Source: Desulfosoma sp. (GTDB lineage: Bacteria > Desulfobacterota > Syntrophobacteria > Syntrophobacterales > DSM-9756). From it: 64,000 nucleotides of DNA. Shown in pieces: positions 19,260 through 45,534 of the stretch. A model generated the notes under the pieces. It searched no databases. It was not told the DNA's origin and worked only from the letters and a program-made list of their open reading frames with translations. The stretch's first letter is position 1. Every line of letters starts with the position of its first letter. The translations under genes were made by a program, and so were the position numbers. The stretch lies in NCBI GenBank assembly GCA_037481835.1, contig JBBFKW010000007.1, positions 1-64,000 of the forward strand. The letters run 5' to 3'.

Positions 19260-19281
19260 GACGGCGATCCTTCTCTTTTCT

Positions 19282-21153
19282 TCATGCGGTGCGGCTCGAA
19301 GGCCGTTCGATGGCTTGATGAGGGCACACGTGAAGGCATACGCCGCACCCGGCGCAGAGGTTTTCGTCGATGGAGACGGCTTCCTTTTCCCCGTGGAAAA
19401 TAAGGGCGGGGCATTCAAAAGACTTAATGCAAAAGCCGCATCCCTCGCATTTTTCCGTGACAACGGGAGCCGGGGCACGGCTTTTCCGACCCTCGTGCCG
19501 AGCGCGCTCCATGAGGCACGGACGGCGTGCGATGACCACGGCCATGCCGCCGTTTTCCGCGTCCCGGCAATGGTCTTTGGCGGCCTTGAGCAATTGGATG
19601 AAACCCGGAACGTCGTATGGATCCCCCACCGACACGTGCCCGACGCCGCAGGCCGCCGCCAAAGCTTCGATGGTCACGGGTGGAACTCTTTGCCCGTCCG
19701 CCGTCATACCGGCGGCCGGCGTCGGCTGATGCCCCGTCATGGCCGTGGTGCCGTTATCCAAAACGATGACGGGAAACCGGCACCCTTGGGCCACGGCGTT
19801 GATGAGGGCCGGGATGCCCGCGTGATAGAAGGTGGAATCGCCGATGGTGGCGACGATGGGCCGGGTGTTGTGGCCCGAATCCCGATAGGCATGAAAGAAT
19901 CCTGCGGCCTGGCTGATGGAAGCTCCCATGCAAAGGACCGTGTCCACCGCCCCCAGGTTCAGTCCCAGAGTGTAACAGCCGATGTCGCTCGCATAAATGC
20001 CCTTGGGGAAAACCTTGCGCATGGCGAAAAAAGCCGCTCGATGGCCGCAGCCGGCGCACAGCGTCGGGCGACGTCCCGCAGCCGGGGAAACATTTTGTTC
20101 TGAAGGTGGAAGCCCGGCAAAACGGCGGACGATCTGTTCCACGATTTCCGGAAGCAGTTCCCCTTCCCGAGGCACAAAGCCGTTCAGCCGCCCCCGGACC
20201 TTGCCGCGGTCCCTGAGTTGTCCTTCGATCACCGGCTGGGTTTCTTCCAAGACCAAAATGTTCTGACAGTTTTCAAGGAGTTCGACGCTGAAGCTTTCGG
20301 ACAGGGGGAAGGGCATGGGCACCTGGTAGATGGGAATCCGGTGCCACAGATCCAAGTCCCGAAGCACTTCCACCGCATGAGCGCACGCGGCCCCCGAAGC
20401 CACAATGGCTTTGTCGAAGGTCGGCTCGACCGAACCGCTTTGCCCGCCAAGAGTTTCGGTCCGGTTCAAGAGTTCCGGCTGCCAGCGGGGGTCTTGCGCG
20501 ATTTGGTCTAGCTTTTCGTTAAGCTTTTTATGGAGAAGATAGCGAAATTTCGGGGTCGCCGCCCATCGGGCCGGATCTTTTTCGAAAACGGGCTGGGACG
20601 GGGCCGTCTGGAAGGCACGGACGGGCATGTCCTGGCGGGCATGGCATACCCGGGTTGTGGGCCGTAGAATGACCGGAATTTCGTAGTCTTCCGATAAGGC
20701 ATAAGCGTGGACGATCCATTCTCGGGCTTGGACAGGATCGGCCGGATCCAATACCGGCAGCTTGGCGAACATGGCAAATTGACGGGTGTCCTGTTCCGTT
20801 TGGGAACTGTGCGGGCCGGGATCGTCGGCCACGATCAGCACAAACCCCCCTTTGACCCCCGTATACGCGGCGCTCATCACCGGGTCGGCCGCCACGTTGA
20901 GCCCCACCTGTTTCATGGCCGCAGCGGAACGTCTTCCAGCGTAGCTGTTGGCCAGAGCCGTTTCCACGGCCACCTTCTCGTTGATGGACCACTCCAGATG
21001 GCACGGCACGGCATGACGACGCCTGAGCTGCATCAAGGCGGCCATGATCTCCGAAGCAGGGGTTCCGGGATAAGAGGCCGCCAGGGTGCAGCCGGCTTCC
21101 AGAAGCCCATGGGCGATGGCTTCATTGCCCAGAAGGATTTTTCTCTCCGTCAC
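19282..21153 (-). CDS. iorA: Indolepyruvate:ferredoxin oxidoreductase alpha subunit
   Basis: LGNEAIA, YPGTPASE, MKQVGLNVAAD, CAGCGH, DIGCY, GDSTF and two C-terminal CxxCxxCxxxCP motifs. Confidence 0.95.
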   Translation of the reverse strand: MTERKILLGNEAIAHGLLEAGCTLAASYPGTPASEIMAALMQLRRRHAVPCHLEWSINEKVAVETALANSYAGRRSAAAMKQVGLNVAADPVMSAAYTGVKGGFVLIVADDPGPHSSQTEQDTRQFAMFAKLPVLDPADPVQAREWIVHAYALSEDYEIPVILRPTTRVCHARQDMPVRAFQTAPSQPVFEKDPARWAATPKFRYLLHKKLNEKLDQIAQDPRWQPELLNRTETLGGQSGSVEPTFDKAIVASGAACAHAVEVLRDLDLWHRIPIYQVPMPFPLSESFSVELLENCQNILVLEETQPVIEGQLRDRGKVRGRLNGFVPREGELLPEIVEQIVRRFAGLPPSEQNVSPAAGRRPTLCAGCGHRAAFFAMRKVFPKGIYASDIGCYTLGLNLGAVDTVLCMGASISQAAGFFHAYRDSGHNTRPIVATIGDSTFYHAGIPALINAVAQGCRFPVIVLDNGTTAMTGHQPTPAAGMTADGQRVPPVTIEALAAACGVGHVSVGDPYDVPGFIQLLKAAKDHCRDAENGGMAVVIARRPCLMERARHEGRKSRAPAPVVTEKCEGCGFCIKSFECPALIFHGEKEAVSIDENLCAGCGVCLHVCPHQAIERPSSRTA

Positions 21154-27099: not shown

Positions 27100-27975
27100 A
27101 TGCCCATTCTCATTGAAGAAACCGCCCCGCGCGACGGCCTTCAAAATGAAGCGCTCCTCTTGAGCGTCCCTCAAAAGATCCGACTTATCGAAGAGCTGGT
27201 CGCCTGCGGATTCCGCCGCATCCAGGTGGGCTCGTTCGTGAATCCCCGAGCTGTGCCCCAAATGGCCGATACGGAAGAAGTCTTGCGGCGGCTCCGTAAG
27301 GAGCCGGGCGTGATCTACCGGGCACTCGTCCTCAACGAAAAGGGATTGGAGCGGGCTCAAGGGTGCGGTGCAGCCCACGTGGGCGTTTTCGTTTCCGCGT
27401 CGGAAACCCATAGCCAGAAAAACAGCGGCTGTGATGTGGAAGAGGGACTCCGCAGAGCCTGCGCCGTGGTACGCAGGGCCAAAGCCGCCGGAATTTCGGT
27501 GCAGGCCGGGGTCATGAACGCCTTCGGCTGTCGCTTCGAAGGTCGTGTTCCCGAAGATCGGGTGCTTTCGCTGGCTGCTTCCCTTGCCGAGGCCGGCGCG
27601 GACGAACTGTGCCTTGCGGATACCTCCGGGTTGGCCAACCCCTTGCAAATGGAAAGGATCGTCGGTGAGGCGCTGCGGACTTTCGCGCTTCCTCTGGGAC
27701 TGCACCTGCACGACACCTTCGGCTTCGGGCTGGCCAACGTATATGCGGCCTGGAAGCTTGGCGTCACACGGTTTGACGGGGCCTGCGGCGGACTCGGCGG
27801 ATGCCCCTTCATTCCGGGAGCTCCAGGGAACATCCCTTCGGAAGATCTCGTGCACCTTTTTCACGCCATGGACGTTCCTACGGGTATCGACCTGGAAAAG
27901 CTGATCGCCGTGCGCCGCTCTCTAGAATCTACTTTCCAGCGTTCCTTACCCGGCCGCTACGGCCGCTCTTTTTAA
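27100..27975 (+). CDS. hmgL: Hydroxymethylglutaryl-CoA lyase
   Basis: PRDGLQNE, SFVNPRAVPQMAD, HLHDT, GGLGGCPF.PGAPGN. Confidence 0.9.
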   Translation: MPILIEETAPRDGLQNEALLLSVPQKIRLIEELVACGFRRIQVGSFVNPRAVPQMADTEEVLRRLRKEPGVIYRALVLNEKGLERAQGCGAAHVGVFVSASETHSQKNSGCDVEEGLRRACAVVRRAKAAGISVQAGVMNAFGCRFEGRVPEDRVLSLAASLAEAGADELCLADTSGLANPLQMERIVGEALRTFALPLGLHLHDTFGFGLANVYAAWKLGVTRFDGACGGLGGCPFIPGAPGNIPSEDLVHLFHAMDVPTGIDLEKLIAVRRSLESTFQRSLPGRYGRSF

Positions 27976-28202
27976 GGCCTTACCTGCGGCGTAAGGATCT
28001 TCGCCGGCCCGGGTGCCTTCCCCCCCATGGCCTCCTTCGAGCCGGGTGTTTTGCCCTCTCGGCATCGTTTCTTCCAATCGCCCTTGAAAAACGACCTCTA
28101 TGAAAGGCCGCTTCATCCAACATCTCCCGGCACGAAAACCCGTCCGGAGAAGAGAGGCGCCCCTGGGGTGCCTCTGCCGGTGACTATGTGAAAAAATTTT
28201 TC

Positions 28203-28233
28203 TTGACGAGCGGAGAATCTGGTTTTGTATTTA
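28203..28233 (+). promoter_or_regulatory. Possible sigma70-type promoter of the giant oxidoreductase operon
   Basis: TTGACG at 28203, preceded by an A/T tract and followed by TGTATTTA. Spacing is imperfect. Confidence 0.3.
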
Positions 28234-28342
28234 GCGTTACCGCCGAGCGACGGTCCCCCATTGCCTACCCTCGATGGACGGCCCGCCGCGTTTTTTCCAA
28301 GTACCCATCGATGTGAGCCGCTGACGGCCAGTGCCTGGTATC

Positions 28343-28427
28343 TCCCGTGAAGCGGGCGCAGTCGCCCTGCGAAGCGGATTTCTCTTCTCCCGCGACGGTT
28401 CCTCATCCTCCCTTTTCCCGTGAAGCG
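28343..28427 (+). repeat. 12-bp direct repeat TCCCGTGAAGCG in the operon leader
   Basis: Exact copies at 28343-28354 and 28416-28427. Confidence 0.6.
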
Positions 28428-28463
28428 CCAGCGGCCGAAAGGACATGAAGGAGGATCAACGTC

Positions 28464-31400
28464 ATGGGTGAGACTCTTTTCCCTTGGATGCCCCACTTTC
28501 CCCTGTCTTTCCAAGTTCCAGACCGTCGCCTTCCCTTGGGGGGAGCGGCTTGGCCTGTACGCATAAGCGGCGACGGCATCGGGGCCTGGATGGAGACCTC
28601 TCGAGGTCGATATCGGATCGTTTCCGAAGAATGGCTTGCGGCCGGAATGCGCCTGGGATTGCTGGGCGCCCGTTTCGCCCAGGACGGGTTTGATCAAGAA
28701 GCCGTGCCGCCGGAGGCGGCATCTCTATGGCGGGAGCACCTCACGGACGGCCGGTTCTATGCCCTGATCGTCCATCCACCCCAGGAACCCGAAGCCGCTT
28801 TCGCCGCCGCAGTTTTTCTTCAGGATCCCGGTGGCGATTACACCCTCATGGAGACGCCTCTCCAAGGCGCGGATCTTTTTCCTTATCTTCTCGCCTTCGC
28901 ACAGGTTGTGGGCCTGCGCGTCCAGGATCCGGCACGATTCGACGATTACGGGGATTTTATGGTCCTCGGCGGCCACAACATCGTGGAACGGCACAGCACG
29001 GACAAGCGGGTGCGGTATTTATCCCGCAAGGTGCGCGTGGATGATGCCCAATGCACCCAGTGCCTTCACTGCGTGGGTTTGTGCCATGAGATGCGAACCG
29101 CCGTTACCCCTGCGGGCGTGGAGCTCCTCGGACCGGCGGAAGACCACTGCACCCATTGCGGATTGTGCCGCATGCGTTGCCCGTATCTCCTTTCCGTGCC
29201 GCACACGGAAGCCGCAGGGAGGGACGGATCGCGCCGAGCCCTGCTGGAACTAGGCGCCGGCGTCAAGCTTTACAGCAAACATGCCGCCGACTGGGCTGAA
29301 TGGTTGGAATTCCTGGAGGATTCACCCCCCCGGGGCTGGCCTTACACCGTGCATCCCGTCTTTTCCAGGGATGAGGCCGACGGCGGCATGCCCAGCCCTG
29401 GAACCCGACAAAAAATCCTGACGCCTCAAAGGCCGGAAGGGTTTCCCGGGGCGCTACCGGAAAAGGGCTTGGTCGTCACCTTGTTTTCTCACGCGGATGC
29501 GCTTCAGTGCCTCATCCGGCCGCGAGTCGTGGCCGGGCTGTTGTGTTCGACGGAACACGGCCGGGTGGAGCGGGACATCTTTGAAGCGGCTTTGGCGGCG
29601 GGGTTGGAAATCCGAGGGGCCGGGCTTTTCGAAACGTCCATCGTGGACGAAGAGGCTGGAGGCGGTCTTGCCGCTCAATCCGTCCGCGTTCGGGTTCCGG
29701 CAAACGATTTTACACGTTTTCTCAAAAAACTCGGGCTGTGGGACGGTCGCTCCATCGCCCGGTTATGGCGGGAAAACACCGTCGATCTCATCCTTGCCCC
29801 TCGGCAGGACGATGTGCCTGTAAGCGTCCAAAGGGAGGTGCTACGCGAAATCGGCCGGGAAGCCCTCATTCTGGCCCCCCATGTGCCCCAAAAACAGCCT
29901 GTGACCAAAAGCCCGCTTTTGAACGACGTGGTACGGCGCCTCCAAGACATCTTCCATCGGCATCCCGAGCTGTTACAGGCTGAATCGGAGACTGCCCGCA
30001 GACTTCTCGACGGTCTTCCTCGATCCGCCGCGCAGCTCCACGCCCGGTACGGCCCCATGGCGTTCGCCGGCGGGCATTCGGCGTGCCCCTCGTGTGCCGA
30101 AGCGCAAGTTTTGGCCGTTCCCGTGGCCATGGCCACGGCCATGAGTCTGGCGCGGGGCGAGGTGCCTCAAGTGGCCTTCACGTGCGAAACGGGATGCATG
30201 AGCGAAACCCTGAACAAGATGACGGAGACGGCCCAAAAAGTCCCCGGAGGTCGCACCGTTTTCGGAGGCGGGTTTGCCTTCGGCGAGGCCATGACCCAGG
30301 TGTTCGACCGAGCGGTGCGCATGGGATTGCTCAGGAAGGGCCGCCGTTACGTGGTGAGTCAAGGGGGCGACGGCGGGGCCGTGATCGGCCTTCCCGCATG
30401 GCTGAACGCATTGCGTCAGCAGGCTTTCCTCATTCGACAGCGATGGGCCAACGCGCTGCACTTCATCACCATTACCGACACCCAGGTCTATTCCAACACG
30501 GGCGGCGAAAGTTCCGCGACGTCCCTCCTGGGCATGGGGACCCTCACCACGCCCATTGGTAAGTTCCTCATGGGCAACCAGAAAATTCAGTGGGCGCTCA
30601 TCAATTTGGCCGCCGAATTCCCCGGTGTTCTGGTAGGGATGGGACACAGCGCCGATCGGGCGTCCATCCAGGAATTCTGGCTGCTCGCCGACCGGTTGGG
30701 ACAATCGGCCATCCGCTGGGATGTGACGCCGTGCCCGGAAACGGGCAAATTTTTCGGGCAGGATCCCGACGACTACGCCCGGATCATGGCCCATGCGGGC
30801 ATGCTGCCTCAGGTGGTCTTCTACGGCCGATATCGAAAACGGGTCGCCCCCTATCATCCGCAAGACCGAGGGAAACCTTTCGACGAATGGCGCAAGGATC
30901 CCAAACCCTTGCTCTATTGGGTGTCCCGGGATCAGCGCTACAAGGCCATGCTCGTCAAGGATCCGACCACCGGTGAATGGGTCCCTCGGAACGCCGCGGC
31001 CCGGTTTCTCATCATGCAGTTGGAAACCTACCGGGATCAGATGAACTGGCAGATCGACTTGGAAACCCGGCTGATTCTTCAGGCGGAAAAACGGGTCCAG
31101 GAGTTCCTCGGCGCCTTGCGGACCCGATGGGAATCGTCCCGGCACAGCGGGGCGGCGTTTCCCTACGCCGTGCTTTTCGACGAGCAGGGGCATCTCAAGC
31201 CGCACTTCGCCTACAGTTTGGAACGGGAGATGGTCCTGCGGCTCTTGGGCCAGGAAGCGGGGGTGCGGTACGCTGATCTTCGCGATGCCTTCCAGGACGA
31301 AGAGGAAAAGCGATGGCAGGCGGTCCTTCGGGCTTTGGAAACTCTGGAAGCGTTTGAAGCCGGCCTGGAACCCTTCGGCGACGATGAAGAGCGACTCATC

Positions 31401-34400
31401 CGGTTGCGCACGGAGGCCCGCGAGGCCTTGGATCAGGTGCAAAAAGCCTACGGCAGGCTGCGGGATGCGGTCACGGCCCTTTGGGCATCCGATCCCGTCG
31501 GTAAAGAACTGCTGGGAACCGGAGACGACTCCAACGCCGGTGCCGACGAGGCCTCCGCGGGGCCGCTCTTCGGCATCCTCGATCGCATCCTGGAAGAAAG
31601 GACCCTGGCCGCATGGACGGAACTTCAGCAGTATCGACTTTCCCAGCGCCTCAGAAGGGATTTTCTCCAAACCGGCGGCCTTATCCGCGTGCACCACGTG
31701 CAGGCCGAATTCCGGGAACGGGAAGCGCTCCGGCAATCCGTGTCCCGGCTTGGACCGTTTTCCATCGCCGTGGCGAGCTTGGCCGGCGATAGAGGGATTG
31801 CCATCAACCGGGTTTTCGCGCAGTTTCTCACCGCCAAGGGCTGTTGGGCCGGCATGGCCTGGCAGTTCGGCTCCTCCAAAAGAGGCACCCCCGTCCTGTC
31901 GGCGACTTTCGTGGACAGCCGCCCGCTGGAACGCAAAGATGCCATGTTTTCCTTTTCGACTCTTGTGGTGGCGGTGACCAACTTCGAAGAGATGAAAAGA
32001 GACCCGGATTTGCTTTTCGGGTCCCTGAGGGTCGGCGGCACCGTCATCGTCAATCATTGGGAGGATCCGGAACGGCTCTGGCGGGATGTGGTGCGTTTCT
32101 GCCCGGAAAACATCCGGCCCGTCGTCACCGTGGTGCGCGATCGGGCCTATAAGGACGGCGGCTGGACGCCGGAGCGGCTGGAACGGGAACTGGATGAAGC
32201 TTTGGAATCCCTGGGTGTTCGCCCTGGATCCCGAGAAAGTGATCGAATCCGAACCTTGTGCCGGGCTTTGATTTCGTGCCGGATGGTCACGGTGGATATG
32301 GACGGCATCATGGAGCGGGTTTCCGGCCGGCCGGGAATGGTGTCCAACCTTGTGGCCGTTTCCCCCATCTTGGACGCCTTGAGCGCAGCCGGCCTCCCCT
32401 TCGACTGGGCACAGGACAAAGATGCGCTCGTCCAAGGCTTTCCCGATGCGGTTCTGAAAAATCCCAAGCTCCTCGGCCTCTATCGGGAAGCCATGGAAAG
32501 GGCTCGTCGCGAACGCCGCGAGTGGCCGTCCCCCGTTGCAGGAAATGGTGCCGGCAAAAGCGATTTCGGGGAAGCATCCGCGGGAGCCACACCGGCCTTT
32601 CCCGCTGGGCAAAGCCGGGGGTGCGCGGAAGATCCCGGGGATGCGCTCATGATCATGGGTGGCACATTGGCGGGGATGGTTCTCTCCCAGATCGCCCTGC
32701 CGGAACACCCGCTTTTTTACGTGGGATTCCCCATCACGCCCGCGGGCAATCCCTTCTATGCCATGGCGGAAGCTTTTGCCAACGGGCACCCTTATATCGT
32801 GGTCGATGAGCTGAACCCGTCGGAAAAAGTGGCCGCGGAAAAGCTCTTGGGAGTGGCCCGAACGGGACTGTTTCTCCCCGTGACGTTTACGGCTTCCCAG
32901 GGCTGGCGGCTTTTTACTGAAATCATCCCGCAGTTCGTCGGCGCTCGCTTGGAAGGTCTCTTTCTTTTGACAAAGAGGGCCCTTGCGGCGCCTAACCTCA
33001 ACATCGAGGAAAGCCATACCGATTTCATGACCTTTAGGGACGACGGCGGGATCATGCTGGCCCCCAAGAGCATTCAGGAATACGTCCCCTGTTTGTACCT
33101 GGCTCGGCTGCTCACTCACTTCGCCAAGCTCCCCGTCGTTCTTTCCATCGGCGGCATCACGGACACGCACAAGATCGGCCTGACCCGGGTGCCGCCCGAC
33201 ATCGTGGTGCGCCGCTGGCTTACGGAGACGCTGCAGGGATTCGATTTCTTGGAAGGGCGGATCGTCAATCCATCCGGCCACCGGGTGGTGCACGGTCCCA
33301 GCTGCACCGCCGCCACGTACCAGGAAACCCAAAGCGAAGTGGAAAAAGCCCACGCCATGGTGTGCCGGGTGTGGCCCTATGCGGTGGAAGCCGTGCGCCG
33401 GCTGACCGGGGTGGCTTTGAACCCGCTGGAAGTGCGGGTGGCCGGAACGGCCATGGAAGAAGCCGTCCCAGAGAGCGCTTCCTCCGTCGAAACTCTGCTC
33501 ATGCTCCAAGGCTCTCTCTTCCCCAACGCCGTGGAAGCTTTGCAGGAATTGGAAGAAGAAGGCTGGCGGGCAATGGGCTGCGTGTCCGTGCGGCTCATGA
33601 ACCCCTTCCCCGAAGAAGAGATCCAACATTGGATCGGCGGTCTCAGGGCTTTGGCGGTTTTGGATCGATCCAACAGTTTCGGGTCCGTCCCGCCGCTGGC
33701 TTCCCGCATTTTCAACGCGTGCGCCCGTCGCCGAAAGGATGGATCCAGAGCCGGGCCGATCGTTTTGAGAACTCTTGTGGGAGGTTTGGGCGGCCGGGAA
33801 ATCACCGTGCCGGAAATGAAAGCTCTGATCCTTTCCACCCATCTTCTTTTCAGTCCATGGGAACCCTGGGAAGGTGAAGCCCTGGGACGATGGGTAGAGG
33901 AAGACGGCGCGCTTCGGGATTGGATCGAAGAATTGGCTGCTTTGGAGATGCGAGCTCTGGAACGGCATACACGGGTACCGAAGCCTGTCAAGGCCCAGGG
34001 GCCGGATGGAGATCTGTTCTTCAAAGAGCGGATCCGCCGCCAGATTGTCCAACGGGACTATGTGGGCCTGCTCGCCCACTACAACCAGGTGGAATTCGTG
34101 GCGCCGAGAGAAGTTTACGGAGAGACGGCCCTGAGGCAGCAGCTGGTCATCGAGCTGGAAAAGCGCCTCGCTCGGCTGGCCGCCGAAAGCGGCCGCCGTG
34201 ACTGGCGCCGTGCCTTGGTGCTCCTGCACTACGGGACTTCGGAGGAGGATCGCGAAAGAGCGCGAATCTTGCTTTCGGGATTGACCGAGGCCCCCTTTGC
34301 AGGGCGACTGCTGCGTCGCTACGGCCTGGACGGTGATGAGAGAGGAGGGCCCGTCGCGGCCCAAGCCCGCCCAATGGACCTTTCCTCGGGTGCGCCCGCC

Positions 34401-34952
34401 GTCCCGTGGACGTGCCTCCTTGAAGAGGAAGAAAGAAAGGCCGAAGCGCTTCCCGCCGTGGCCTACGAGGCGGAAGAAGCCGAGCGCATCGAAAGAGCGA
34501 TTCGGAACCTTGTGGATCTTTCGAGCAGGCGGCCGCTGTTCCTCAACCCCGAAGACTACGATCGTCTCCTCCTGGAAGCCCTGGCTCACGAGGCGGATTC
34601 CCAGTGGGCCCGGATCGTGACGGCCTCGGGGGAACCCTCGGCTTCCCAGCAGGAAGGATACCTGTGGACCTATCGGGATGTGATCGATCGATGCCTGCAC
34701 CGCGAAGTTCTGGGGAAATTTTACGCTCCGGAAATTGAAGAGCTTTTCGACGGGCAGGGCCGGGATGGGCTTAGAAAACTTTTCGAAAGCCTCGAACCGT
34801 CCCTGGCCTTGGAAGAAAAGAAAAGGATCGTGGAAGAGCATTTGCGGCGCCGCATGTCCACTGAATGGACCAAGTCCCATGATTTTTATCTGGAAGTTTT
34901 CCGAACTTGGGTGTGGCCCGAAATCAGCGGACAGGGCGCAATGGGCACATAG
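28464..34952 (+). CDS. Giant single-chain 2-oxoacid:ferredoxin oxidoreductase (PFOR/OFOR family), domain order ferredoxin-beta-gamma-alpha, with unknown extra domains
   Basis: AAGGAGG RBS. Ferredoxin CTQCLHCVGLC and CTHCGLCRMRCP (~29052-29185). Beta HSACPSC, TGC, GGDGG, DTQVYSNTGG, TPCP (~30070-30740). Gamma SLAGDRG, FGSSKRG (~31780-31890). Alpha FPITP, SE, TASQG, RALAAP..HTD, DRS, GGLGGR (~32720-33800). Confidence 0.88.
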   Translation: MGETLFPWMPHFPLSFQVPDRRLPLGGAAWPVRISGDGIGAWMETSRGRYRIVSEEWLAAGMRLGLLGARFAQDGFDQEAVPPEAASLWREHLTDGRFYALIVHPPQEPEAAFAAAVFLQDPGGDYTLMETPLQGADLFPYLLAFAQVVGLRVQDPARFDDYGDFMVLGGHNIVERHSTDKRVRYLSRKVRVDDAQCTQCLHCVGLCHEMRTAVTPAGVELLGPAEDHCTHCGLCRMRCPYLLSVPHTEAAGRDGSRRALLELGAGVKLYSKHAADWAEWLEFLEDSPPRGWPYTVHPVFSRDEADGGMPSPGTRQKILTPQRPEGFPGALPEKGLVVTLFSHADALQCLIRPRVVAGLLCSTEHGRVERDIFEAALAAGLEIRGAGLFETSIVDEEAGGGLAAQSVRVRVPANDFTRFLKKLGLWDGRSIARLWRENTVDLILAPRQDDVPVSVQREVLREIGREALILAPHVPQKQPVTKSPLLNDVVRRLQDIFHRHPELLQAESETARRLLDGLPRSAAQLHARYGPMAFAGGHSACPSCAEAQVLAVPVAMATAMSLARGEVPQVAFTCETGCMSETLNKMTETAQKVPGGRTVFGGGFAFGEAMTQVFDRAVRMGLLRKGRRYVVSQGGDGGAVIGLPAWLNALRQQAFLIRQRWANALHFITITDTQVYSNTGGESSATSLLGMGTLTTPIGKFLMGNQKIQWALINLAAEFPGVLVGMGHSADRASIQEFWLLADRLGQSAIRWDVTPCPETGKFFGQDPDDYARIMAHAGMLPQVVFYGRYRKRVAPYHPQDRGKPFDEWRKDPKPLLYWVSRDQRYKAMLVKDPTTGEWVPRNAAARFLIMQLETYRDQMNWQIDLETRLILQAEKRVQEFLGALRTRWESSRHSGAAFPYAVLFDEQGHLKPHFAYSLEREMVLRLLGQEAGVRYADLRDAFQDEEEKRWQAVLRALETLEAFEAGLEPFGDDEERLIRLRTEAREALDQVQKAYGRLRDAVTALWASDPVGKELLGTGDDSNAGADEASAGPLFGILDRILEERTLAAWTELQQYRLSQRLRRDFLQTGGLIRVHHVQAEFREREALRQSVSRLGPFSIAVASLAGDRGIAINRVFAQFLTAKGCWAGMAWQFGSSKRGTPVLSATFVDSRPLERKDAMFSFSTLVVAVTNFEEMKRDPDLLFGSLRVGGTVIVNHWEDPERLWRDVVRFCPENIRPVVTVVRDRAYKDGGWTPERLERELDEALESLGVRPGSRESDRIRTLCRALISCRMVTVDMDGIMERVSGRPGMVSNLVAVSPILDALSAAGLPFDWAQDKDALVQGFPDAVLKNPKLLGLYREAMERARRERREWPSPVAGNGAGKSDFGEASAGATPAFPAGQSRGCAEDPGDALMIMGGTLAGMVLSQIALPEHPLFYVGFPITPAGNPFYAMAEAFANGHPYIVVDELNPSEKVAAEKLLGVARTGLFLPVTFTASQGWRLFTEIIPQFVGARLEGLFLLTKRALAAPNLNIEESHTDFMTFRDDGGIMLAPKSIQEYVPCLYLARLLTHFAKLPVVLSIGGITDTHKIGLTRVPPDIVVRRWLTETLQGFDFLEGRIVNPSGHRVVHGPSCTAATYQETQSEVEKAHAMVCRVWPYAVEAVRRLTGVALNPLEVRVAGTAMEEAVPESASSVETLLMLQGSLFPNAVEALQELEEEGWRAMGCVSVRLMNPFPEEEIQHWIGGLRALAVLDRSNSFGSVPPLASRIFNACARRRKDGSRAGPIVLRTLVGGLGGREITVPEMKALILSTHLLFSPWEPWEGEALGRWVEEDGALRDWIEELAALEMRALERHTRVPKPVKAQGPDGDLFFKERIRRQIVQRDYVGLLAHYNQVEFVAPREVYGETALRQQLVIELEKRLARLAAESGRRDWRRALVLLHYGTSEEDRERARILLSGLTEAPFAGRLLRRYGLDGDERGGPVAAQARPMDLSSGAPAVPWTCLLEEEERKAEALPAVAYEAEEAERIERAIRNLVDLSSRRPLFLNPEDYDRLLLEALAHEADSQWARIVTASGEPSASQQEGYLWTYRDVIDRCLHREVLGKFYAPEIEELFDGQGRDGLRKLFESLEPSLALEEKKRIVEEHLRRRMSTEWTKSHDFYLEVFRTWVWPEISGQGAMGT

Positions 34953-34966
34953 GACGGGGGGCGACC

Positions 34967-37900
34967 ATGGGCATGGAAGGACTCAGCTCGCAGTATTCCC
35001 TGGAACAATTCTATGCGGAGCTTTCCACAGACCAGGAACGAGCCTTTCACAAGACGGCGCGAGACGTCACCGCGGCTTTGGCCGAACGCTTCCGGTTCCG
35101 GGATGCCGTTCGGGACGTGCACAACGCTGTGGAACAAGCTCTCGTCGCCCTGCGAAAAATCGACATGGCTTGGGACAGCGCCCCCGAAGGGGCGTGCCTG
35201 CGGGTTTTTCGCAGGAAATGGTTCGAGGCGGCGCCTCTTGTGGAACATGTCCGACGTGTGGGTTTTTTTTCAACACACCCCGTGGATCTTCTCCCCTGGG
35301 TCCGATGGTTCCTCCTTGTGGAAAACTACCATCGGACGGACCCTGTCCACCACGACCGCCGGTTGGACCGCCTGCGCTTCCTCAAGACCGAAAATCCCCA
35401 CGCCCCGTGCATCAGCCACGAAGATGTGCTTCTGTGGCTCGAACACCAGCTTCTTGTCCACGAACGCGAGCCCTTGTCCGCGATCGCTGAAAAATGCGCC
35501 GAGCAGCTCCGAAACCGGTTGGATGAAACCCTCAGGCCCCACACGGCCCTCGATGCTTTCTTTTTCGTCCTGTTGCGATGCCACCAGTTTTGTCTGGCTG
35601 AAACCATGACCGAAGACGATGCGAGGCGTCTTCAAACCGTCCTGGGATGGCGCCGGTTCCTCTCTCTGACGGATCTCATGCTCGTGGTCATCCATCGGGT
35701 CCTCGATCGGGAACCTTTGCCGGACGCCGTGACGGTTCTCGATGAGCTGATGGCGGATGGGTTCCAGATTCGCCATGCGAGCTTCAAAGACCCGTACGAA
35801 GCGGATGTGGTGGCCGCGGAAGATACGGCCCGCTTCGATGAGACGACGATCCGGCTGTTCGCATCGGTGGATAAGCTTCACGGCATTTTGGAAAGAGATT
35901 GCGCGGCGGTCTTCCAAGAATGGCAGGCTCGGCGGGGAAAGGTTTTGGACGAGCTTGAGGAGGAGATTTGCGAGCTGAGGGAGATGATCGCCAACCCGCT
36001 GCCTCGAAAACACCTCATCGGCCGAACCATTCGATTGCTAACGTCCTGGTGCTTGGCTCACGGGAAGCCGGGTGACGAGGCCTGGGAAAACATGTCGTCC
36101 GAAGAAGGCCTTAGAGCGCTCGTCGATCGGGTTCGGGCGTCTTTTCCCGAAGGGGTTCTCAAGGCTTTGGTGCGCCAGCGGCGCGGGTATGAATTGACCA
36201 CTCGAAAAGAGCTGGCCCTTCGGATCGAAAGGGAATGCCGCCTGCAGTGGGAAAGTTTTCGAAAAGAGCCGGGTTCTCGAGCCTACGGGGAGGTTGATTT
36301 CCGGATTGCTGAGCGCGTTCGGGCCTTGGCTTCGGGGCCGGTCCCACCGGAAAAGGGTGATGCGGACGCACTCAAGGTCGAAACCCTTGCCGGCTTGGCC
36401 GACCTAATCCGGCGGCGCAAGATTTCCGATGAGGCGGTTTCGTCGTCGTTATGCTTGGGATTGGACGTGTTTTTCCCCACCATGGGAACGCCTTTGGAAT
36501 TTGTGGAAAGCCTAAGAGACTTGGTACCTTACGAAGAATTGTGCAACCGCGCTCCGTCGGCGCAAAAGGGCGGACCGGAGGAGGCTGTGGCCTTGTACGA
36601 GAGAACCCTGGCCCGTTTTGCCGGGGCGTTCTACCGATTCGTTGTTGCCCAGGGCAAGAAGGAGGCCGGCCTGCCGCTTGAGCTTTCTTTAAGCGAAATT
36701 CCTGAACTGGCGGCGGTGATGGTCCCTCCGTGGGGTGCCCTGACCGAGGGGTTGCTGCGCAGTGCCGTCCGTAAATTTCAGCATCAATCGGCGCCTCTTT
36801 ACCGCCGCCGGAAGAATCCCATCTGCTTGGATGAAGAAGAATTCGGCGTGCACCTGGCTCATTTCGTCATGTGCGAGCTCAAGGCCGATGTGAAGCACTC
36901 CGCCGAAACGGGGACCCTGGCTGCGGTGCGAAAAGCCGTGACGGAGGAAGCTCTTCGGGTCGTCGTTCCGGACCGCGTCCGAACCCTCACGAGCCCGGAA
37001 AGATTCCTACTTCAATGGGCGGGGATCTTGGACTCCCGGCAGGGCGCCGAAGAGCTGCAGAGAGCCGTGGCGGGGGCTCTTCCCGGCTTGGACTGCGGTG
37101 CGTGTGGGGAAAGCCGATGCGCCTCCTTTGCCCAGGGACTCCTCCAAGGGCGGCGTCGCATCCGCGAGTGCGTACATCTCAGCCCCGCGGGGCAGCGGCA
37201 CATCGAGGCCATGGTGCAGGAACATCTCTCCAAAGTCTCGCGAGGAAACGGTGTCGGATCGGCCTACGAACTTTTCCGGAATCCGGCCCTGTGGAGGCGT
37301 CTGCCGAAAGCGGACCCATTGAGGCGTTCGGTAGTCAAGGTGGTAGATGTGGGCCGACAAGAGGAGCGGCGTCGGGTCATGGATCACGCTTTCCGGAGCT
37401 GGCAGGGGCTCGATTCCAAGCCGGACGTTTACAAGAGGCCGGACCCGGAGGCTTTTTATCAAGCTCTTGTGGAAACCATCGGGTATGAGGCCACCGAAAG
37501 GATTCGCCCCGAGGAACGCCGGTGGTTGGCCGAGCACGGCCGAATCCGCCTGGAGAAGGAACTGGAAAAGCTGGAGAAGCGCACGGATTGGCTCACGCTG
37601 GAGCGGCTCCTCATTTCCGGCGGGCCTTCGAGCCTTGAGGCGGATCCCGAAACCCAAGCCCTGCGCGCCTATGAGGCGATGGCCTACCTGCATCAGCTGC
37701 ACGAGGACGACCGACGGCGCCTTTTGGTCCATCGCCTGGAAAGCTTCGAAGAGGGGTTTTCCCAGTGGTGGAATCAAGATCTCCTCACCATGAACCACCC
37801 CCGCTACCGGATCGATAACTGGGAAGAATTTTCCAAGGTCATCAAGAACGCCTTTTGGCATCAGGAAAATTTCCCGCCGCCCCGGCGTGTGGCGGAAGAG

Positions 37901-39941: not shown

Positions 39942-42900
39942 ATGAGCGCCTATCAACCTTTGGACCCGAACATGACATGTCGTCCCTCGTGGTGGGTGGA
40001 ACGTCTTCGGTGCGTTTCGGGCCGCCCAGTTCCAGTTCGGGACACGCGCATCCCGAAAGACGGGAAACCTCTGGCGGCGGTCGTCGGTGCCCTTCGGGCA
40101 GGATTGGACGAGCTGCGGTTGCTTGTAGGGGCGGATTCGGAGGCTTTCCGGGGTTTTGTCGAAGGGCTGCGCGCCGAGGCCTTGGGACCGTGGGGAGAGG
40201 ATCCTGAGCGCCGTTTGGTCGGGCTGGTTAAAGAGGCTTTGGGGCGAAGGGATTGGCGCGAAAAAGACATCATCGACATGATTCTCGCCTATCTCACGGC
40301 GCTGGGTCCTTCGCTGCCCGAAGATGTGAGAATGTCTTGGGAAAGGTTGGAAAGGGCGGCGAAGGCGCGCAACGGTGCCGAGCGCACGCTCATGGAAGGC
40401 CTCATCAGCGAAGCGCGGGGGCGTCTTGGCGGCTTGGCGTGGGCCCGGGAGCATGCCTTGGAAAAAGGACCCCGTGAGGGCGCCTTCGGCCTTTCTTCCC
40501 TTCGATGGCTTCGAGAAACACTGGCCGCCATGACGGGATGCGCCGGCGATCTCGCCGACCGTTCCGATGAGGAGTTGGCGCGCCTGAGTCCGGCCGAGAT
40601 ATGGCAGGATTTGGACGAGGCTTTGACGAAAGCCTGGGGGAAAACGGGCCGGAGCTTTCCCGTCAAAGATTTGGAAAAAGCTTCCTTGTATCTCATGGAG
40701 GACATGGGAGCGAGGAGTCCCAACCATCGGTTCTTCATCCGTTTTCTCATTGAAGACGAAGCGGCCTATCGGCGCCTCTTGAGAACCTGTTACGCCGACG
40801 AAACGGTGCAGAGGGCCTGTTTGGATCAGGAATGCGAGCGGTTCAACCGTCTTCCGGAACATGCGGCCCACCGGGTGTTCTACGACGCCGACGAAAAAAC
40901 GTGGTGGCTTAAAGCGTTTTTCCTCAGGCCGGACGTGGTGCACTGTTTCGTGGAACGGGAAAGAGCCAAGGATATTTACCATGTCCTCGCGGGACTGGAA
41001 CCTAAAGCCTATCTGCCTCGGGTGCTCCATGAAGTTCAAGGGCTTTTCGGGTATGTGACACCGGAGGCGTGCCGCCACATCGTCCAGCGCCTCGGCTTGG
41101 ATCCCGAAGACGTTCTTCGGGTGATCGCCTCCTACAAGCAGTACAGCGCCGATCCCTCGGGGGACATCATCATCTACGTGTGCAAGGGAACAGCGTGTTT
41201 TCTCCGCGGCCAGCCTGAACTGTCGCGTCGGCTCACTGAGGAAATCGGGGCGGAAGTGGACGCCGTGGGCCGCTACGGGGTGCAGTATGTGGAGATGGAT
41301 TGTTTCGGGGTGTGCCATCTGGCTCCCGTGGTGCGCGCCGGAAATCGTTTCTATGGAAAGCAAAAGGCGGAAGATATTCCCCGGCTGGTGAATAGCCTCA
41401 TCCAGGGCCCCGACTACGAAAACCGGCAACGGTTCGTGTCGCGCCTTTTGGAAAAGATGCGTGCCGACAGCGTCAGCGAGCCCGTGGATGCTTTGAGGGT
41501 CGAATCCGTGGGAAAATTTTCCAAAGTCGACCGCTTGGGAGTGCGGGAAGAGGGCGCGTGGGACGATTCTTTGGAGGGATGTTCGGTAATTTTGGACGAC
41601 AAGGGCGCTGTTTCCATACTCCTACCGGACGGTTTCGCGCACGGCGTAGGCCGACTGGTCCCTCGGGTTCTTCCTTTCATCATGCGGGATGCGGACGGTT
41701 TCAATCGTTTCGGCGCCGTCGTTCTCGATGATCATCGTCGGGCGGCACGGGTGTTGGGCGTGCCCGACCTGACGGACGAGGAGGTGATCCGGGGCGCGCT
41801 TCGTCCGACGGCTCGAGTCGTGGACGGCCGCGTGGTGCTCTCTTCCCATGAAAAGACCGTGGTGCTGGGCCCTTATACGGATCGGGTGCTCATCGCCGAC
41901 GCCCCTGATGCCTACGTCGCCGTTGTTTTGGCGGAAGGAGGTGCTTCAGGTCCTTTCGTCGAAACCGAAGCAAGAGGCCCTGACAGGGTTGCGTCCGAAG
42001 AGGCCTCTTTCCGGGCGGGCCAAGACCGGGTTGTTTTGGATTTCGCCGCTGCAGGGCGTCCGTCCTGCATGGCGTCCTATCGAGCGGCGGGGGGCTATGA
42101 GTCGGTCTACCGGGTGCTGGGATTTCGCGGGGAGCCCCCGTGGGATCCGGAACGGATCATCGCGGAAGTGCGGGACGCGAAGCTTCGGGGACGGGGCGGG
42201 GCGGGCTTTCCCACGGGACGCAAGTGGGAAGCCATGTTACGGGCCGTGTGTCGGATCGATCCCGAAGACGGCAACCAAGACCCGGTGAAACTCATCGTGG
42301 CCAACGGCGACGAAGGAGACCCGGGGGCCTTCATGGACCGCACGCTCATCGAGGAAAAACCCCATCAGGTTCTGGAAGGAATGATCTTGGCCGCCGTTGC
42401 CGTGGGCGCCCGCTACGGGGTGATCTATGTGCGAAAAGAGTATGAAGACGCCGTGAGAAGCCTGGAGGACGCGCTTTTCGAGGCACGGCGCTGCGGGTTT
42501 CTCGGGCGGGATATTTTTGGAGTGTCCGGATTGCACTTTGACGTGGAAATCCGATTGGGGGCCGGGGCGTTCGTGGCCGGAGAGAAGCGGGCCATCATGC
42601 GGGCCATTGAAGGAAAGCCTGCAGAACCCACCATCAAGGCCCCGTCCAACACCGTGCGCGGGCTTTGGGGAAAGCCCACACTGCTCAACAACGTGGAAAC
42701 CTTTGCCAATGTCCCCGTCATTCTTCACCGAGGGAGCGCCTGGTATGCCCGGCTGGGCACGTCCCGAAGCGGCGGGACCAAAATCTTTTCCGTCGCCGGC
42801 ATTGTCAAGAAAACCGGGCTCGTGGAAGTCCGCTTCGGCAAGACCCTTGGGGATGTCATCGAAATCTGCGGCGGAATCCAGGACGGAAAGAAACTCTCCG

Positions 42901-43607
42901 GAGTCCAGATCGGGGGGCCGTCCGGAGCCATCCTGTCCTTGACCGGCGCTCGGGCTTACCTGCTCCAGACGCCTTTGGATTTCGACACGTTCAACGATGC
43001 CGGCGCCATGTTGGGTTCCGGCGGGTTGGTCTTTATCGGAGAAGACGACGACGTCGTCCGGCTGGCTCGCCATTTTACGGATTGGCTTTCGGAAGAATCC
43101 TGCGGTCAATGCCCGTCGTGTTTTCGAGGCACCCGGGCCTTGGGGCGTGTCCTGGACAAGATCCTGGCCGGTCAGGGCACAGCGGGCGATATTCACGAAT
43201 TGTGGGCTTTGAGCGATGTGGTGCGGGCCGGAAGTCAGTGCGGCCTAGGAACAACCGCCGCCAACCCCGTGACCAGCGCCTTGCGGTTTTTCCCCGCGTC
43301 CTTTTTCCACTACCTGCTCGGCAACCCGGAGATGCAACCTCGCGATGTCTTTGAGGCCCTGGAGGCCCTGAGGCTCCTGACACGACAGGAAATCGTTCGT
43401 GTTGCGGGAGTGCGCCGACACGTGGAAGGGGCGGCTTTCACGCTGAAACGGCATCTGGTGCGGTTCCTGGTGGAAGAAATCGAAAAAATCGATCGCTACC
43501 GGCCGTTGCCTTCCCGAATGACCGATCGGTTGCTCCGGTTGCTGGGCCTGCCGCGCTACGAAGTGGGCCAAAGAGAAGTCGTCATGGAATGGCGCGATGT
43601 GGCATAA
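39942..43607 (+). CDS. Fused NuoE-NuoF (HydC/HydB-like) NAD(P)H-flavin/Fe-S module with N-terminal extension
   Basis: AAGGAG RBS. NuoE [2Fe-2S] CKGTAC...CFGVC. NuoF LRGRGGAGFPTG.KW, NGDEGDPGAFMDR, NNVETF, GGPSG, and [4Fe-4S] CGQCPSC...CGLG. Confidence 0.9.
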   Translation: MSAYQPLDPNMTCRPSWWVERLRCVSGRPVPVRDTRIPKDGKPLAAVVGALRAGLDELRLLVGADSEAFRGFVEGLRAEALGPWGEDPERRLVGLVKEALGRRDWREKDIIDMILAYLTALGPSLPEDVRMSWERLERAAKARNGAERTLMEGLISEARGRLGGLAWAREHALEKGPREGAFGLSSLRWLRETLAAMTGCAGDLADRSDEELARLSPAEIWQDLDEALTKAWGKTGRSFPVKDLEKASLYLMEDMGARSPNHRFFIRFLIEDEAAYRRLLRTCYADETVQRACLDQECERFNRLPEHAAHRVFYDADEKTWWLKAFFLRPDVVHCFVERERAKDIYHVLAGLEPKAYLPRVLHEVQGLFGYVTPEACRHIVQRLGLDPEDVLRVIASYKQYSADPSGDIIIYVCKGTACFLRGQPELSRRLTEEIGAEVDAVGRYGVQYVEMDCFGVCHLAPVVRAGNRFYGKQKAEDIPRLVNSLIQGPDYENRQRFVSRLLEKMRADSVSEPVDALRVESVGKFSKVDRLGVREEGAWDDSLEGCSVILDDKGAVSILLPDGFAHGVGRLVPRVLPFIMRDADGFNRFGAVVLDDHRRAARVLGVPDLTDEEVIRGALRPTARVVDGRVVLSSHEKTVVLGPYTDRVLIADAPDAYVAVVLAEGGASGPFVETEARGPDRVASEEASFRAGQDRVVLDFAAAGRPSCMASYRAAGGYESVYRVLGFRGEPPWDPERIIAEVRDAKLRGRGGAGFPTGRKWEAMLRAVCRIDPEDGNQDPVKLIVANGDEGDPGAFMDRTLIEEKPHQVLEGMILAAVAVGARYGVIYVRKEYEDAVRSLEDALFEARRCGFLGRDIFGVSGLHFDVEIRLGAGAFVAGEKRAIMRAIEGKPAEPTIKAPSNTVRGLWGKPTLLNNVETFANVPVILHRGSAWYARLGTSRSGGTKIFSVAGIVKKTGLVEVRFGKTLGDVIEICGGIQDGKKLSGVQIGGPSGAILSLTGARAYLLQTPLDFDTFNDAGAMLGSGGLVFIGEDDDVVRLARHFTDWLSEESCGQCPSCFRGTRALGRVLDKILAGQGTAGDIHELWALSDVVRAGSQCGLGTTAANPVTSALRFFPASFFHYLLGNPEMQPRDVFEALEALRLLTRQEIVRVAGVRRHVEGAAFTLKRHLVRFLVEEIEKIDRYRPLPSRMTDRLLRLLGLPRYEVGQREVVMEWRDVA

Positions 43608-43665
43608 AGGCAAAAGTGAAGAGGGAAATCCAGCTGTCAGGAAAACGTTGCCCTGGAGGGGGACC

Positions 43666-44235
43666 ATGATGACCAAAGAGAGAACGTACTTCCAAGCCTT
43701 TCGAGAAATGGTGCAGGTGGTGAGCGGCACCTTGGATGTGCAGGTGGTGCTGCAGGCCATGGTGAGCACGATTCCCCAGGTCTTGGGGGCCAAGGCCTGT
43801 GCCGTCCGCCTCCTGGACCCCAAAGGCCGCACTCTGGAATTGGCCGCCAGTCACGGACTCAGTGACGCCTACATCCACAAGGGGCCTGTCGATGCGGACC
43901 AAAGCCTTGCCGAAACGCTTCAAGGAAAGACCGTCGTCATCCACGATGCATCGACGGACCCTCGAGCCCAGTACGGCGAAGCGGCCCGCAAGGAGGGGAT
44001 CGTGGGCATCTGTTCCGTTCCCCTTAAGGTCAAAGGGAGGGTGATCGGGGTCCTGAGAATTTACACCGAGGAGCCCAAGGAGTATGTCCCCGACGAGCTG
44101 GCCTTTGTGGAGGCTTTGGGAGAATTGGGAGGCATTGCCATTGAAAACGCCCGTATGTACGAGCGGCTGAAAAAGGATTACGAAGAGGTCATGAGCGATG
44201 TCTTTCGCTTTGTGGGGTATCGGCGCAGCCTGTGA
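43666..44235 (+). CDS. Stand-alone GAF domain protein
   Basis: LELAASHGLS..Y, SVPLKVKGRVIGVL, AIENARMY, with GGAGG RBS. Confidence 0.87.
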   Translation: MMTKERTYFQAFREMVQVVSGTLDVQVVLQAMVSTIPQVLGAKACAVRLLDPKGRTLELAASHGLSDAYIHKGPVDADQSLAETLQGKTVVIHDASTDPRAQYGEAARKEGIVGICSVPLKVKGRVIGVLRIYTEEPKEYVPDELAFVEALGELGGIAIENARMYERLKKDYEEVMSDVFRFVGYRRSL

Positions 44236-44342: not shown

Positions 44343-44420
44343 TTTTTTTAGATGGCGGCGAACGCCCGCTCAAGGGGAGAGCGTGCGGGCTTGAATCCGG
44401 TCAGAGTGAGGGCGGCGGAA

Positions 44421-45476: not shown

Positions 45477-45534
45477 GCCGTACCGGCCGAGAAAGCCGAA
45501 AAATTCGAAACTGGAGACAGTATTGAGGTGCGCG

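Follow-up and report, generated by a model that had tools for sequence, protein, structure and literature searches.

A single-chain 2-oxoacid:ferredoxin oxidoreductase homologue with reversed domain order, encoded in a conserved four-gene module of Desulfosoma and relatives

What kind of enzyme is encoded by a gene that carries the parts of a 2-oxoacid:ferredoxin oxidoreductase (OFOR) in an unfamiliar order, set among long stretches of unassigned sequence? This question is raised by gene A (P0001), which encodes 2,162 amino acids and lies in a 64,000-nt stretch of a Desulfosoma sp. genome (assembly GCA_037481835.1, contig JBBFKW010000007.1, positions 1 to 64,000; hereafter the window). OFORs occupy a central place in the carbon and energy metabolism of anaerobes. 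In gene A, all five functional parts of an OFOR stand on one chain in the order delta (domain V), beta (VI), gamma (III, weakly recognised), alpha (I-II), and this order is the reverse of that in the canonical single-chain pyruvate:ferredoxin oxidoreductase (PFOR).

The domains were mapped with Pfam and NCBIfam hidden Markov models (HMMs) and by a search against the sequences of the Protein Data Bank (PDB). In the alpha part, POR_N (PF01855) matched residues 1418-1631 (E 6.6e-24, 85.4 bits versus a cut-off of 27) and PFOR_II (PF17147) matched residues 1676-1784 (E 3.1e-10, 40.8 bits versus a cut-off of 27); the PFOR structure 6cin_A aligned with the same part over its residues 26-349, and for domains I and II taken together a PFOR of the PDB aligned over residues 26-373. 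The beta part, which binds thiamine pyrophosphate (TPP) in OFORs, was recognised by NCBIfam PorB at residues 533-720 (E 1.8e-11) and by Methanosarcina acetivorans PorB (9bt4_C), residues 11-236 of which aligned to residues 535-783 (E 1.9e-6). The ferredoxin part gave matches to Fer4_21 (residues 191-240, E 5.7e-5, under the Pfam cut-off) and PorD_KorD (residues 191-241, E 3.9e-4). For the gamma part, the Pfam family POR (PF01558) is precomputed in 35 of the 70 sequence clusters that make up the gene A family. Judged by its domains I, II and VI, gene A is predicted to encode an enzyme of the OFOR superfamily.

The order was also apparent when a profile of the gene A family was compared with a canonical PFOR of 1,217 amino acids (P0073): profile positions 1431-1752, 186-228 and 657-676 aligned with PFOR positions 67-384, 690-734 and 1010-1029, respectively. 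The delta-beta-gamma-alpha order proposed in the initial annotation is therefore borne out, and the coordinates given there for the ferredoxin, beta, gamma and alpha domains were right to within about 25 residues. The segments that it had left unassigned also stood, since residues 1-190, 245-530, about 790-1100 and 1785-2162 drew no match in Pfam, NCBIfam or the PDB.

Single-chain PFORs (NifJ; Moorella 6cin and Desulfovibrio africanus 1b0p; TIGR02176) resemble gene A in carrying domains I, II, V and VI, and a domain III that is weakly recognised in gene A, on one polypeptide, and the TPP motif, the proximal-cluster cysteines, the 2x[4Fe-4S] domain and the substrate- and TPP-binding residues can be aligned. 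Their order, however, is I-II-III-IV-V-VI, whereas that of gene A is V-VI-III-I-II. Moreover, domain IV (PF10371/EKR) has no Pfam match in gene A, the PFOR model TIGR02176 reaches 70.5 bits on it versus a cut-off of 911.35, and gene A has about 900 additional residues, specific to its family and lying beyond the OFOR parts, as well as dedicated giant partners. The architecture section of a recent review of PFORs (November 2026, PMC13768988) describes one-, two-, four- and five-subunit forms, with one-subunit enzymes running alpha-gamma-delta-beta and two-subunit enzymes placing domain III before domain I; the order of gene A is not among the architectures given there. Our literature searches, the scope of which did not extend to the supplements of PMC9304861 that possibly list relatives of gene C (see below), returned no description of this architecture or of the gene module to which it belongs. 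As the gene A family shows, the five OFOR parts can be recombined into another linear sequence within a single chain.

We then compared individual residues in an alignment of 33 family members (mean column identity 54%). Conservation is highest in the OFOR cores (0.76-0.92), and the inserts are less conserved but nearly gap-free. The gamma core, residues 1121-1160, belongs to the best conserved blocks with a value of 0.88. In the alpha part, the FPITP loop (F1422-P1426, including T1425), S1453-E1454, which the HMMER alignment places on the 'SE' of PFOR, and R1505 in KRALAAP, aligned with the Arg of the PFOR 'ARAL', are invariant. The same is true of G635-D636-G637, Y676-S-N-T-G-G681 (including N678) and the cysteines C541, C544, C578 and C757 in the beta part, and of all eight cysteines in the two CxxCxxCxxxC motifs of the ferredoxin part. 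By comparison with PFOR, the aligned residues presumably serve TPP activation (Glu), carboxylate binding (Arg and Thr) and Mg/TPP binding. All motifs that had been picked out at first sight (PITP, SE, the Arg of RALAAP, GDG, NTGG and the beta-cluster cysteines) are thus retained across the family. Since the cofactor and substrate residues are invariant, the gene A product is probably active.

Misassembly as the source of the permuted order is excluded, because independent contigs tile gene A unbroken and full-length orthologues exist in ten other genomes. Gene A is a single frame from ATG to stop without internal stops; the strong Shine-Dalgarno sequence AAGGAGGA lies 8 nt 5' of the ATG, and a terminator-like hairpin at 27951-27965 closes the gene upstream. 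Contigs from four other public metagenome runs (three studies; three of the four runs are labelled hot spring) tile positions 28000-35400 in unchanged order, and in one run two contig pieces of 17,844 and 10,864 nt, overlapping by 25 nt, span this stretch. The indels within gene A in these contigs are 3 or 15 nt long, with the exception of one 4-nt insertion in a contig of depth 3.

A word-indexed search of 5.8 billion proteins assembled the gene A family: 70 clusters including the window's own, 1,322-2,246 amino acids long, 67 of them nearly full length (2,066-2,246 amino acids), with identities of 43-87%. Where a source is named, it is Desulfosoma, Desulfacinum or Syntrophobacteraceae, and the database labels read 'hypothetical protein' or 'pyruvate:ferredoxin oxidoreductase'. 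The distribution is narrow. Within the order, 13 of the 41 genomes examined carry gene A; the window's own copy and ten others are full length in one frame, one is a fragment at a contig end, and one (G029) is in pieces that alternate between two frames. In an even sample of the phylum, residues 1-530 were matched in 7 of 401 genomes, one of these matches being a full copy of 2,091 amino acids from outside the order. On the opposite strand, a stop-free open reading frame of 1,635 codons (29973..34880, minus) runs through most of gene A; we rejected it as a gene, as all homology is on the plus strand and GC-rich codon usage probably accounts for it.

A scan of the whole genome with POR_N gave 11 matches. 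Gene A ranks ninth with 90.8 bits, after eight canonical alpha subunits (170-254 bits; three of the Por/Vor type and five of the Kor type) and before two IorA proteins (51 and 40 bits). Because the genome also possesses canonical Por/Vor, Kor and Ior enzymes, gene A is an extra, specialised paralogue. To place it, two maximum-likelihood trees of the alpha domain were calculated, the first with 11 of the 33 aligned family members, eight non-Ior paralogues and five canonical PFORs, the second with six members, seven paralogues and neither the PFORs nor a long KorGA row; Ior alpha subunits were omitted from both. The gene A family was monophyletic with 100/100 support, its stem measuring 2.8 changes per site in the first tree and 3.4 in the second. 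It fell on the Por/Vor/PFOR side of a 100/100 split from the Kor-type alpha subunits and was not nested inside the single-chain PFORs. Its pairing with single-chain PFORs as sister group (99/97) is flagged by the tool as a possible long-branch artefact; when the PFORs and the long KorGA row were omitted, the clade attached next to a Por/Vor alpha subunit (86/92), among those of this genome itself.

Two halves can be discerned in the chain, first delta-beta and then gamma-alpha. According to PMC13768988, beta comes immediately after delta in single-chain PFOR, and two-subunit OFOR/OGOR enzymes have gamma ahead of alpha; in their alpha subunit (KorA/OAFO_sf, TIGR03710), gamma stands directly N-terminal to alpha as it does in the second half of gene A. 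However, the Kor-type gamma-alpha model TIGR03710 reaches only 14.5 bits on gene A, and a 100/100 branch of at least 3 changes per site lies between the Kor alpha subunits and the gene A clade. This score and the alpha tree indicate that the gamma-alpha adjacency in gene A arose separately from the Kor-type fusion. The suggestion of an independent fusion, made in the initial annotation, is supported by a clade that is distinct in the alpha tree, apart from the Kor type and outside the single-chain PFORs.

The additional segments at both ends of the chain were modelled with AlphaFold2 from a 67-row alignment. In the model of residues 1-530 (pLDDT 81.5, pTM 0.87), a beta-rich N-domain spans residues 30-150, and the ferredoxin is followed by an alpha/beta domain at 267-470 and a helical stalk at 484-530. 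In a fold search with this model that did not rely on Foldseek, PorD of M. acetivorans (9bt4_H; Z 8.7, root mean square deviation 3.1, 76 aligned, model residues 161-247) came first and the delta subunit of oxalate oxidoreductase (OOR, 5c4i_B; Z 8.3) second. Since PorD and OOR delta are the top fold matches, the model confirms that residues 188-247 are an OFOR-type delta domain. The alpha/beta domain drew only generic matches of the Rossmann-like kind, such as the N-domain of MurD (3lk7_A; Z 7.3, root mean square deviation 3.7, 124 aligned). The N-domain had no specific match in the fold searches, which barely tested it. Foldseek against the PDB gave no match at E<=1e-3 for residues 1-530 or 1785-2162, the best value for the tail being 0.29, and the best Z of 6.3 for the tail in the fold search VIA is meaningless for helices. 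Thus, both inserts fold confidently in the models and nothing specific matches them. For residues 784-1096, Pfam, NCBIfam and PDB searches gave no match, and the ESM Atlas gave no usable match for residues 790-1100.

When residues 1-530 were searched with HMMER against 1.84 billion representative proteins, 11 proteins were found; two are full-length members of the gene A family, and we read the other nine (76-870 amino acids) as fragments of it. As residues 1-530 were found only in the gene A family and the fold searches gave no specific match, the inserts are family-specific. A free-standing protein of 225 amino acids in a genome of another family (L021 9830-10507, minus; G220:C95) is 30% identical to residues 158-347, that is, the ferredoxin domain and the start of the insert. 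We do not consider it an ancestral split subunit: it stands beside a remnant of an IS1595-type transposase and housekeeping genes, and it is probably the relic of a lost gene A copy.

Gene A does not stand alone. It is followed on the same strand by gene B, gene C and a gene for a small GAF-domain protein, with spacings of 20 nt between A and B and 109 nt between B and C, and an overlap of 11 nt between C and the GAF gene. Of the 13 carriers of gene A in the order, 12 have A, B and C consecutively on one strand, spanning several genera and down to 52% identity; the remaining carrier (G004, 380 contigs) shows no more than pieces at the ends of contigs, and in one genome (G018) the end of gene C continues on a second contig. 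Gene B was found in 12 of the 41 genomes, every one a carrier of gene A, and outside the order one genome (G379) again has A followed by B. Using equal size of the longest contig with that of an A-family cluster as a proxy for a shared contig, 23 of 67 other C-family and 6 of 17 other B-family clusters were linked to gene A. The GAF gene is directly 3' of gene C in all six other genomes examined. We conclude that A, B, C and the GAF gene form a fixed four-gene module, which had been missed in the first reading of the window. In the genome with the broken gene A (G029:C35:174747-190100), gene B is in pieces as well and gene C is in two pieces with one in-frame TGA; either decay of the copy or indel errors in the assembly could account for this.

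The frame of gene B opens at 34907, and the database record starts at its residue 23 (nt 34973). The only recognisable feature of the protein is the 33-residue motif PF04060 at residues 725-756 (nt 37079-37174), present in all 17 members of the B family, with C730, C733, C738 and C755 invariant; there is exactly one such cluster motif. In the PDB, it is matched solely by the corrinoid/iron-sulfur protein, in the cluster domain of the latter, and no usable match was found in the ESM Atlas.

Gene C contains a NuoE-like [2Fe-2S] domain (PF01257, residues 357-485, 87 bits, above the cut-off) and a NuoF core at about residues 686-1127, where PF01512 (136.8 bits) and PF10589 (NADH_4Fe-4S, 79.6 bits), both above their cut-offs, lie together with SLBB (25.7 bits versus a cut-off of 27) within residues 743-1121; the model TIGR01959 reached 369 bits, under its cut-off of 558.65. 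With all four domain types present, gene C is predicted to encode a NuoE/NuoF-type flavoprotein module with flavin mononucleotide (FMN) that reacts with NAD(P)H. The nearest PDB entries to the NuoF part are HydB of Thermotoga maritima (7p5h_B, 2.1e-116; also 7q4v_B) and NfnB (9n5u_B, 9.4e-110), and the NuoE part matches best to NfnC (9n5u_C, 1.7e-18) and HydC. Among 42 members of the C family, in which the NuoF core is conserved, the only invariant cysteines are C414/419/454/458 for a [2Fe-2S] cluster and C1054/1057/1060/1100 for a [4Fe-4S] cluster. Two relatives (P0137 and P0142; 724-725 amino acids, on contigs of 229-291 kb) have the NuoE domain only; in some organisms, gene C is apparently divided ahead of the NuoF part.

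With moderate confidence, we propose that the module encodes an NAD(P)+-reducing 2-oxoacid oxidoreductase complex, in which gene A would provide catalysis and a chain of clusters, gene B a one-cluster bridge, and gene C the exit. A 2-oxoacid would be decarboxylated on TPP at the alpha/beta interface of A, and the acyl group would be passed to coenzyme A (CoA) on the gamma domain; use of this domain is argued by the high conservation of its core. Two electrons would leave through the proximal cluster, pass both clusters of the delta domain and be handed, probably via the single cluster of B, to the [4Fe-4S] cluster in the NuoF part of C, from where they would reach FMN and reduce NAD(P)+. Domains of the BfuA/NuoG type (Fer2_4, NADH-G, molybdopterin-type) were not found in A, B or C at E<=0.1, the rest of the genome not being searched. 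Because these three proteins have no such domain, the cluster of B is the only candidate for a bridge from A to C.

Several results weigh against this proposal. The Pfam model TPP_enzyme_C has no match in gene A; the gamma model POR (PF01558) matches residues 1112-1289 weakly (E 0.013, 16.1 bits versus a cut-off of 27.4); and all curated OFOR models fall far short of their cut-offs, with 79 bits versus 550 as the top NCBIfam score. The neighbouring genes that might name the substrate vary between genera. Furthermore, NuoF of complex I (about 1e-84) falls behind the bifurcating HydB and NfnB in the comparison with gene C.

The affinity of the two parts of gene C to HydB/NfnB and NfnC/HydC favours an alternative, an electron-bifurcating or confurcating enzyme in the manner of a radically rebuilt 'Por-Bfu', which would obligatorily couple 2-oxoacid oxidation to the simultaneous reduction of both NAD+ and free ferredoxin, or work in reverse for 2-oxoacid synthesis. 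It gains from Schut et al. 2022 (PMC9304861), who predict a Por-linked Bfu in syntrophic Proteobacteria and a 'Type 4' without BfuA. There, BfuB is defined by FMN and five Fe-S clusters and BfuC by one cluster. Gene C does not correspond to this definition: it aligns only with residues 137-558 of the 626-residue HydB, and as one [2Fe-2S] and one [4Fe-4S] set of cysteines are all that is invariant, three clusters of BfuB are absent. Nor does the module correspond to the Type 4 arrangement, which feeds a full BfuBC core. In addition, BfuA is lacking from A, B and C, and the oxidation of 2-oxoacids with NAD+ thermodynamically needs no bifurcation (PMC9304861, Table 1). We therefore regard a bifurcating enzyme as unlikely. 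Less likely still is a different TPP/Fe-S chemistry, either independent of CoA as in oxalate oxidoreductase or with an unusual 2-oxoacid or acyl donor, the partners then serving another acceptor. The stem of 2.8-3.4 changes per site that separates the family from all other alpha subunits would fit such a change, as would the barely recognisable gamma domain and the curated family scores far under their cut-offs, but no variation is seen at the positions that align with the PFOR residues for TPP activation (Glu), carboxylate binding (Arg and Thr) and Mg/TPP binding, and the gamma core is among the best conserved blocks. Finally, gene A has a complete set of OFOR cofactors including its own two-cluster ferredoxin domain and might be a self-sufficient, ferredoxin-dependent OFOR with B and C merely co-located for a separate function, but this is very improbable given the A-B-C order across genera, its partial recurrence outside the order, the confinement of B to carriers of A and the short or overlapping gene gaps.

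Among known systems, the four-subunit Por/Vor OFORs (PorABCD; M. acetivorans 9bt4) provide the best HMM and fold matches to gene A, namely PorA_Arch, PorB and PorD. They differ in having separate subunits instead of fused parts, an identity of about 30%, and a distance along the stem of gene A of about 3 changes per site. The NADH-dependent phenylglyoxylate dehydrogenase PadEFGHI (NCBIfam NF04576x) is an OFOR-type enzyme that reduces NAD+ via extra Fe-S/flavin subunits; its subunits are separate and its partner proteins are others, and PadG and PadI score 34.5 and 12.7, each versus a cut-off of 700. The Bfu family including Por-Bfu resembles the module in the genetic coupling of an OFOR to a HydB/HydC-like NAD(H) flavoprotein, and the core of gene C is nearest to BfuB/BfuC structures. 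'Por-Bfu' as given in PMC9304861, however, consists of BfuABC and four separate Por subunits, whereas the module has no BfuA in A-C, a BfuB-like part minus three of five clusters, BfuB and BfuC parts that are fused and carry inserts, and a new one-cluster protein B of 1,619 amino acids.

The proposed NAD(P)+-reducing complex would couple an NAD(P)H flavoprotein to gene A through B, a partner without known relatives. Of the module's roughly 5,000 residues, about two thirds have no match among described proteins. Named cultured carriers are Desulfosoma caldarium, Desulfacinum infernum DSM 9756 and Desulfacinum hydrothermale DSM 13146. As these carriers are in culture and non-pathogenic, the existence of a ferredoxin-independent or bifurcating 2-oxoacid:NAD(P) oxidoreductase in sulfate reducers is directly testable. 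A speculative extension, which we consider as unlikely as the bifurcating enzyme, is that protomers of A, B and C, each of about 5,000 residues in all, form with the usual OFOR dimerisation a complex of about one megadalton, where the mostly helical, non-NuoG, one-cluster protein B replaces BfuA as a wire and the pared-down BfuB-like core and the delta domain still bifurcate or confurcate electrons with NAD(P) and ferredoxin as partners, controlled by the GAF subunit. If true, such a megacomplex would add a third, independent route by which 2-oxoacid oxidation is linked to pyridine nucleotides, and a new architecture of flavin-based energy coupling in sulfate reducers and syntrophs.

Table 1 Positions in the window of gene A, its predicted domains and the other genes of the module
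Feature	Residues	Position (nt)	Strand	Evidence
Gene A, single-chain permuted OFOR		28464..34952	+	Open frame; Shine-Dalgarno AAGGAGGA; ~70 homologous clusters; contig tiling from four other runs
N-terminal beta-rich domain	30-150	28551..28913	+	AlphaFold2 block, pLDDT 78-93; no family or PDB sequence match
Delta-type 2x[4Fe-4S] ferredoxin (OFOR domain V)	188-247	29025..29204	+	Fer4_21; PorD_KorD; eight invariant Cys; PorD fold match
Alpha/beta insert, generic Rossmann-like	267-470	29262..29873	+	AlphaFold2 pLDDT mostly >85
Beta/TPP domain with proximal [4Fe-4S] (domain VI)	533-783	30060..30812	+	PorB; 9bt4_C; invariant GDG, NTGG and four Cys
Post-beta extension and poorly conserved linker	784-1096	30813..31751	+	Conservation falls from ~0.7 to 0.26, then rises again
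Gamma (CoA-binding, domain III) region	~1097-1350	31752..32513	+	Weak Pfam POR match; PF01558 in 35/70 clusters; conserved block 1121-1160
Alpha domains I (POR_N) and II (PFOR_II)	1418-1631 and 1676-1784	32715..33815	+	Pfam; 6cin_A; 90.8 bits in genome-wide POR_N scan
C-terminal all-helical tail	1785-2162	33816..34949	+	AlphaFold2 pLDDT 84.6, pTM 0.60
Gene B, helical giant with one [4Fe-4S] 'FeS' motif, 1,619 aa		34973..39832	+	PF04060; invariant Cys; adjoins A
Gene C, NuoE/BfuC-like and NuoF/BfuB-like fusion, 1,221 aa, with three unknown parts		39942..43607	+	Pfam domains; always 3' of B
Small GAF-domain protein		43597..44235	+	GAF_2 3e-19; start overlaps gene C stop by 11 nt

The genes around the module differ between carriers. 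An HMG-CoA lyase gene 5' of the module occurs in the window's genus only, and the combination of an HD-GYP protein and citramalate synthase 3' of it occurs in two genera. In the window, these two genes follow the GAF gene at 44352-47136 (plus); the HD-GYP-type protein is matched by HD_5, and the citramalate synthase reaches 784 bits with TIGR00977. The same pair follows the GAF gene in all three genomes checked of the window's genus and in G005, and the synthase does so in G007. The HD-GYP protein together with the GAF protein hints at control linked to cyclic di-GMP. In two genomes of one genus (G005 and G007), a divergently oriented gene for an ADP-forming acyl-CoA synthetase lies 5' of the module, which weakly supports an acyl-CoA product. 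We considered these neighbours as pointers to the substrate and rejected them, since the HMG-CoA lyase and citramalate synthase genes are genus-limited and the acyl-CoA synthetase gene is confined to one genus.

Two further OFOR loci were noticed in this genome. Seven kb 5' of gene A, the window carries an indolepyruvate:ferredoxin oxidoreductase pair (18690-21153, minus). Its IorA (623 amino acids) reaches 641.8 bits with TIGR03336, just under the cut-off of 650.9, and the 262-codon open reading frame beside it is matched by IorB models with at best 201 bits versus a cut-off of 267; the Ior domain order is alpha-TPP-ferredoxin, yet another OFOR arrangement. Outside the window (L023; G000:C7:112005-113984, minus), a PorA-type alpha subunit of 659 amino acids, about 270 of which form an added N-terminal part, represents a further OFOR fusion of non-standard build in the same genome.

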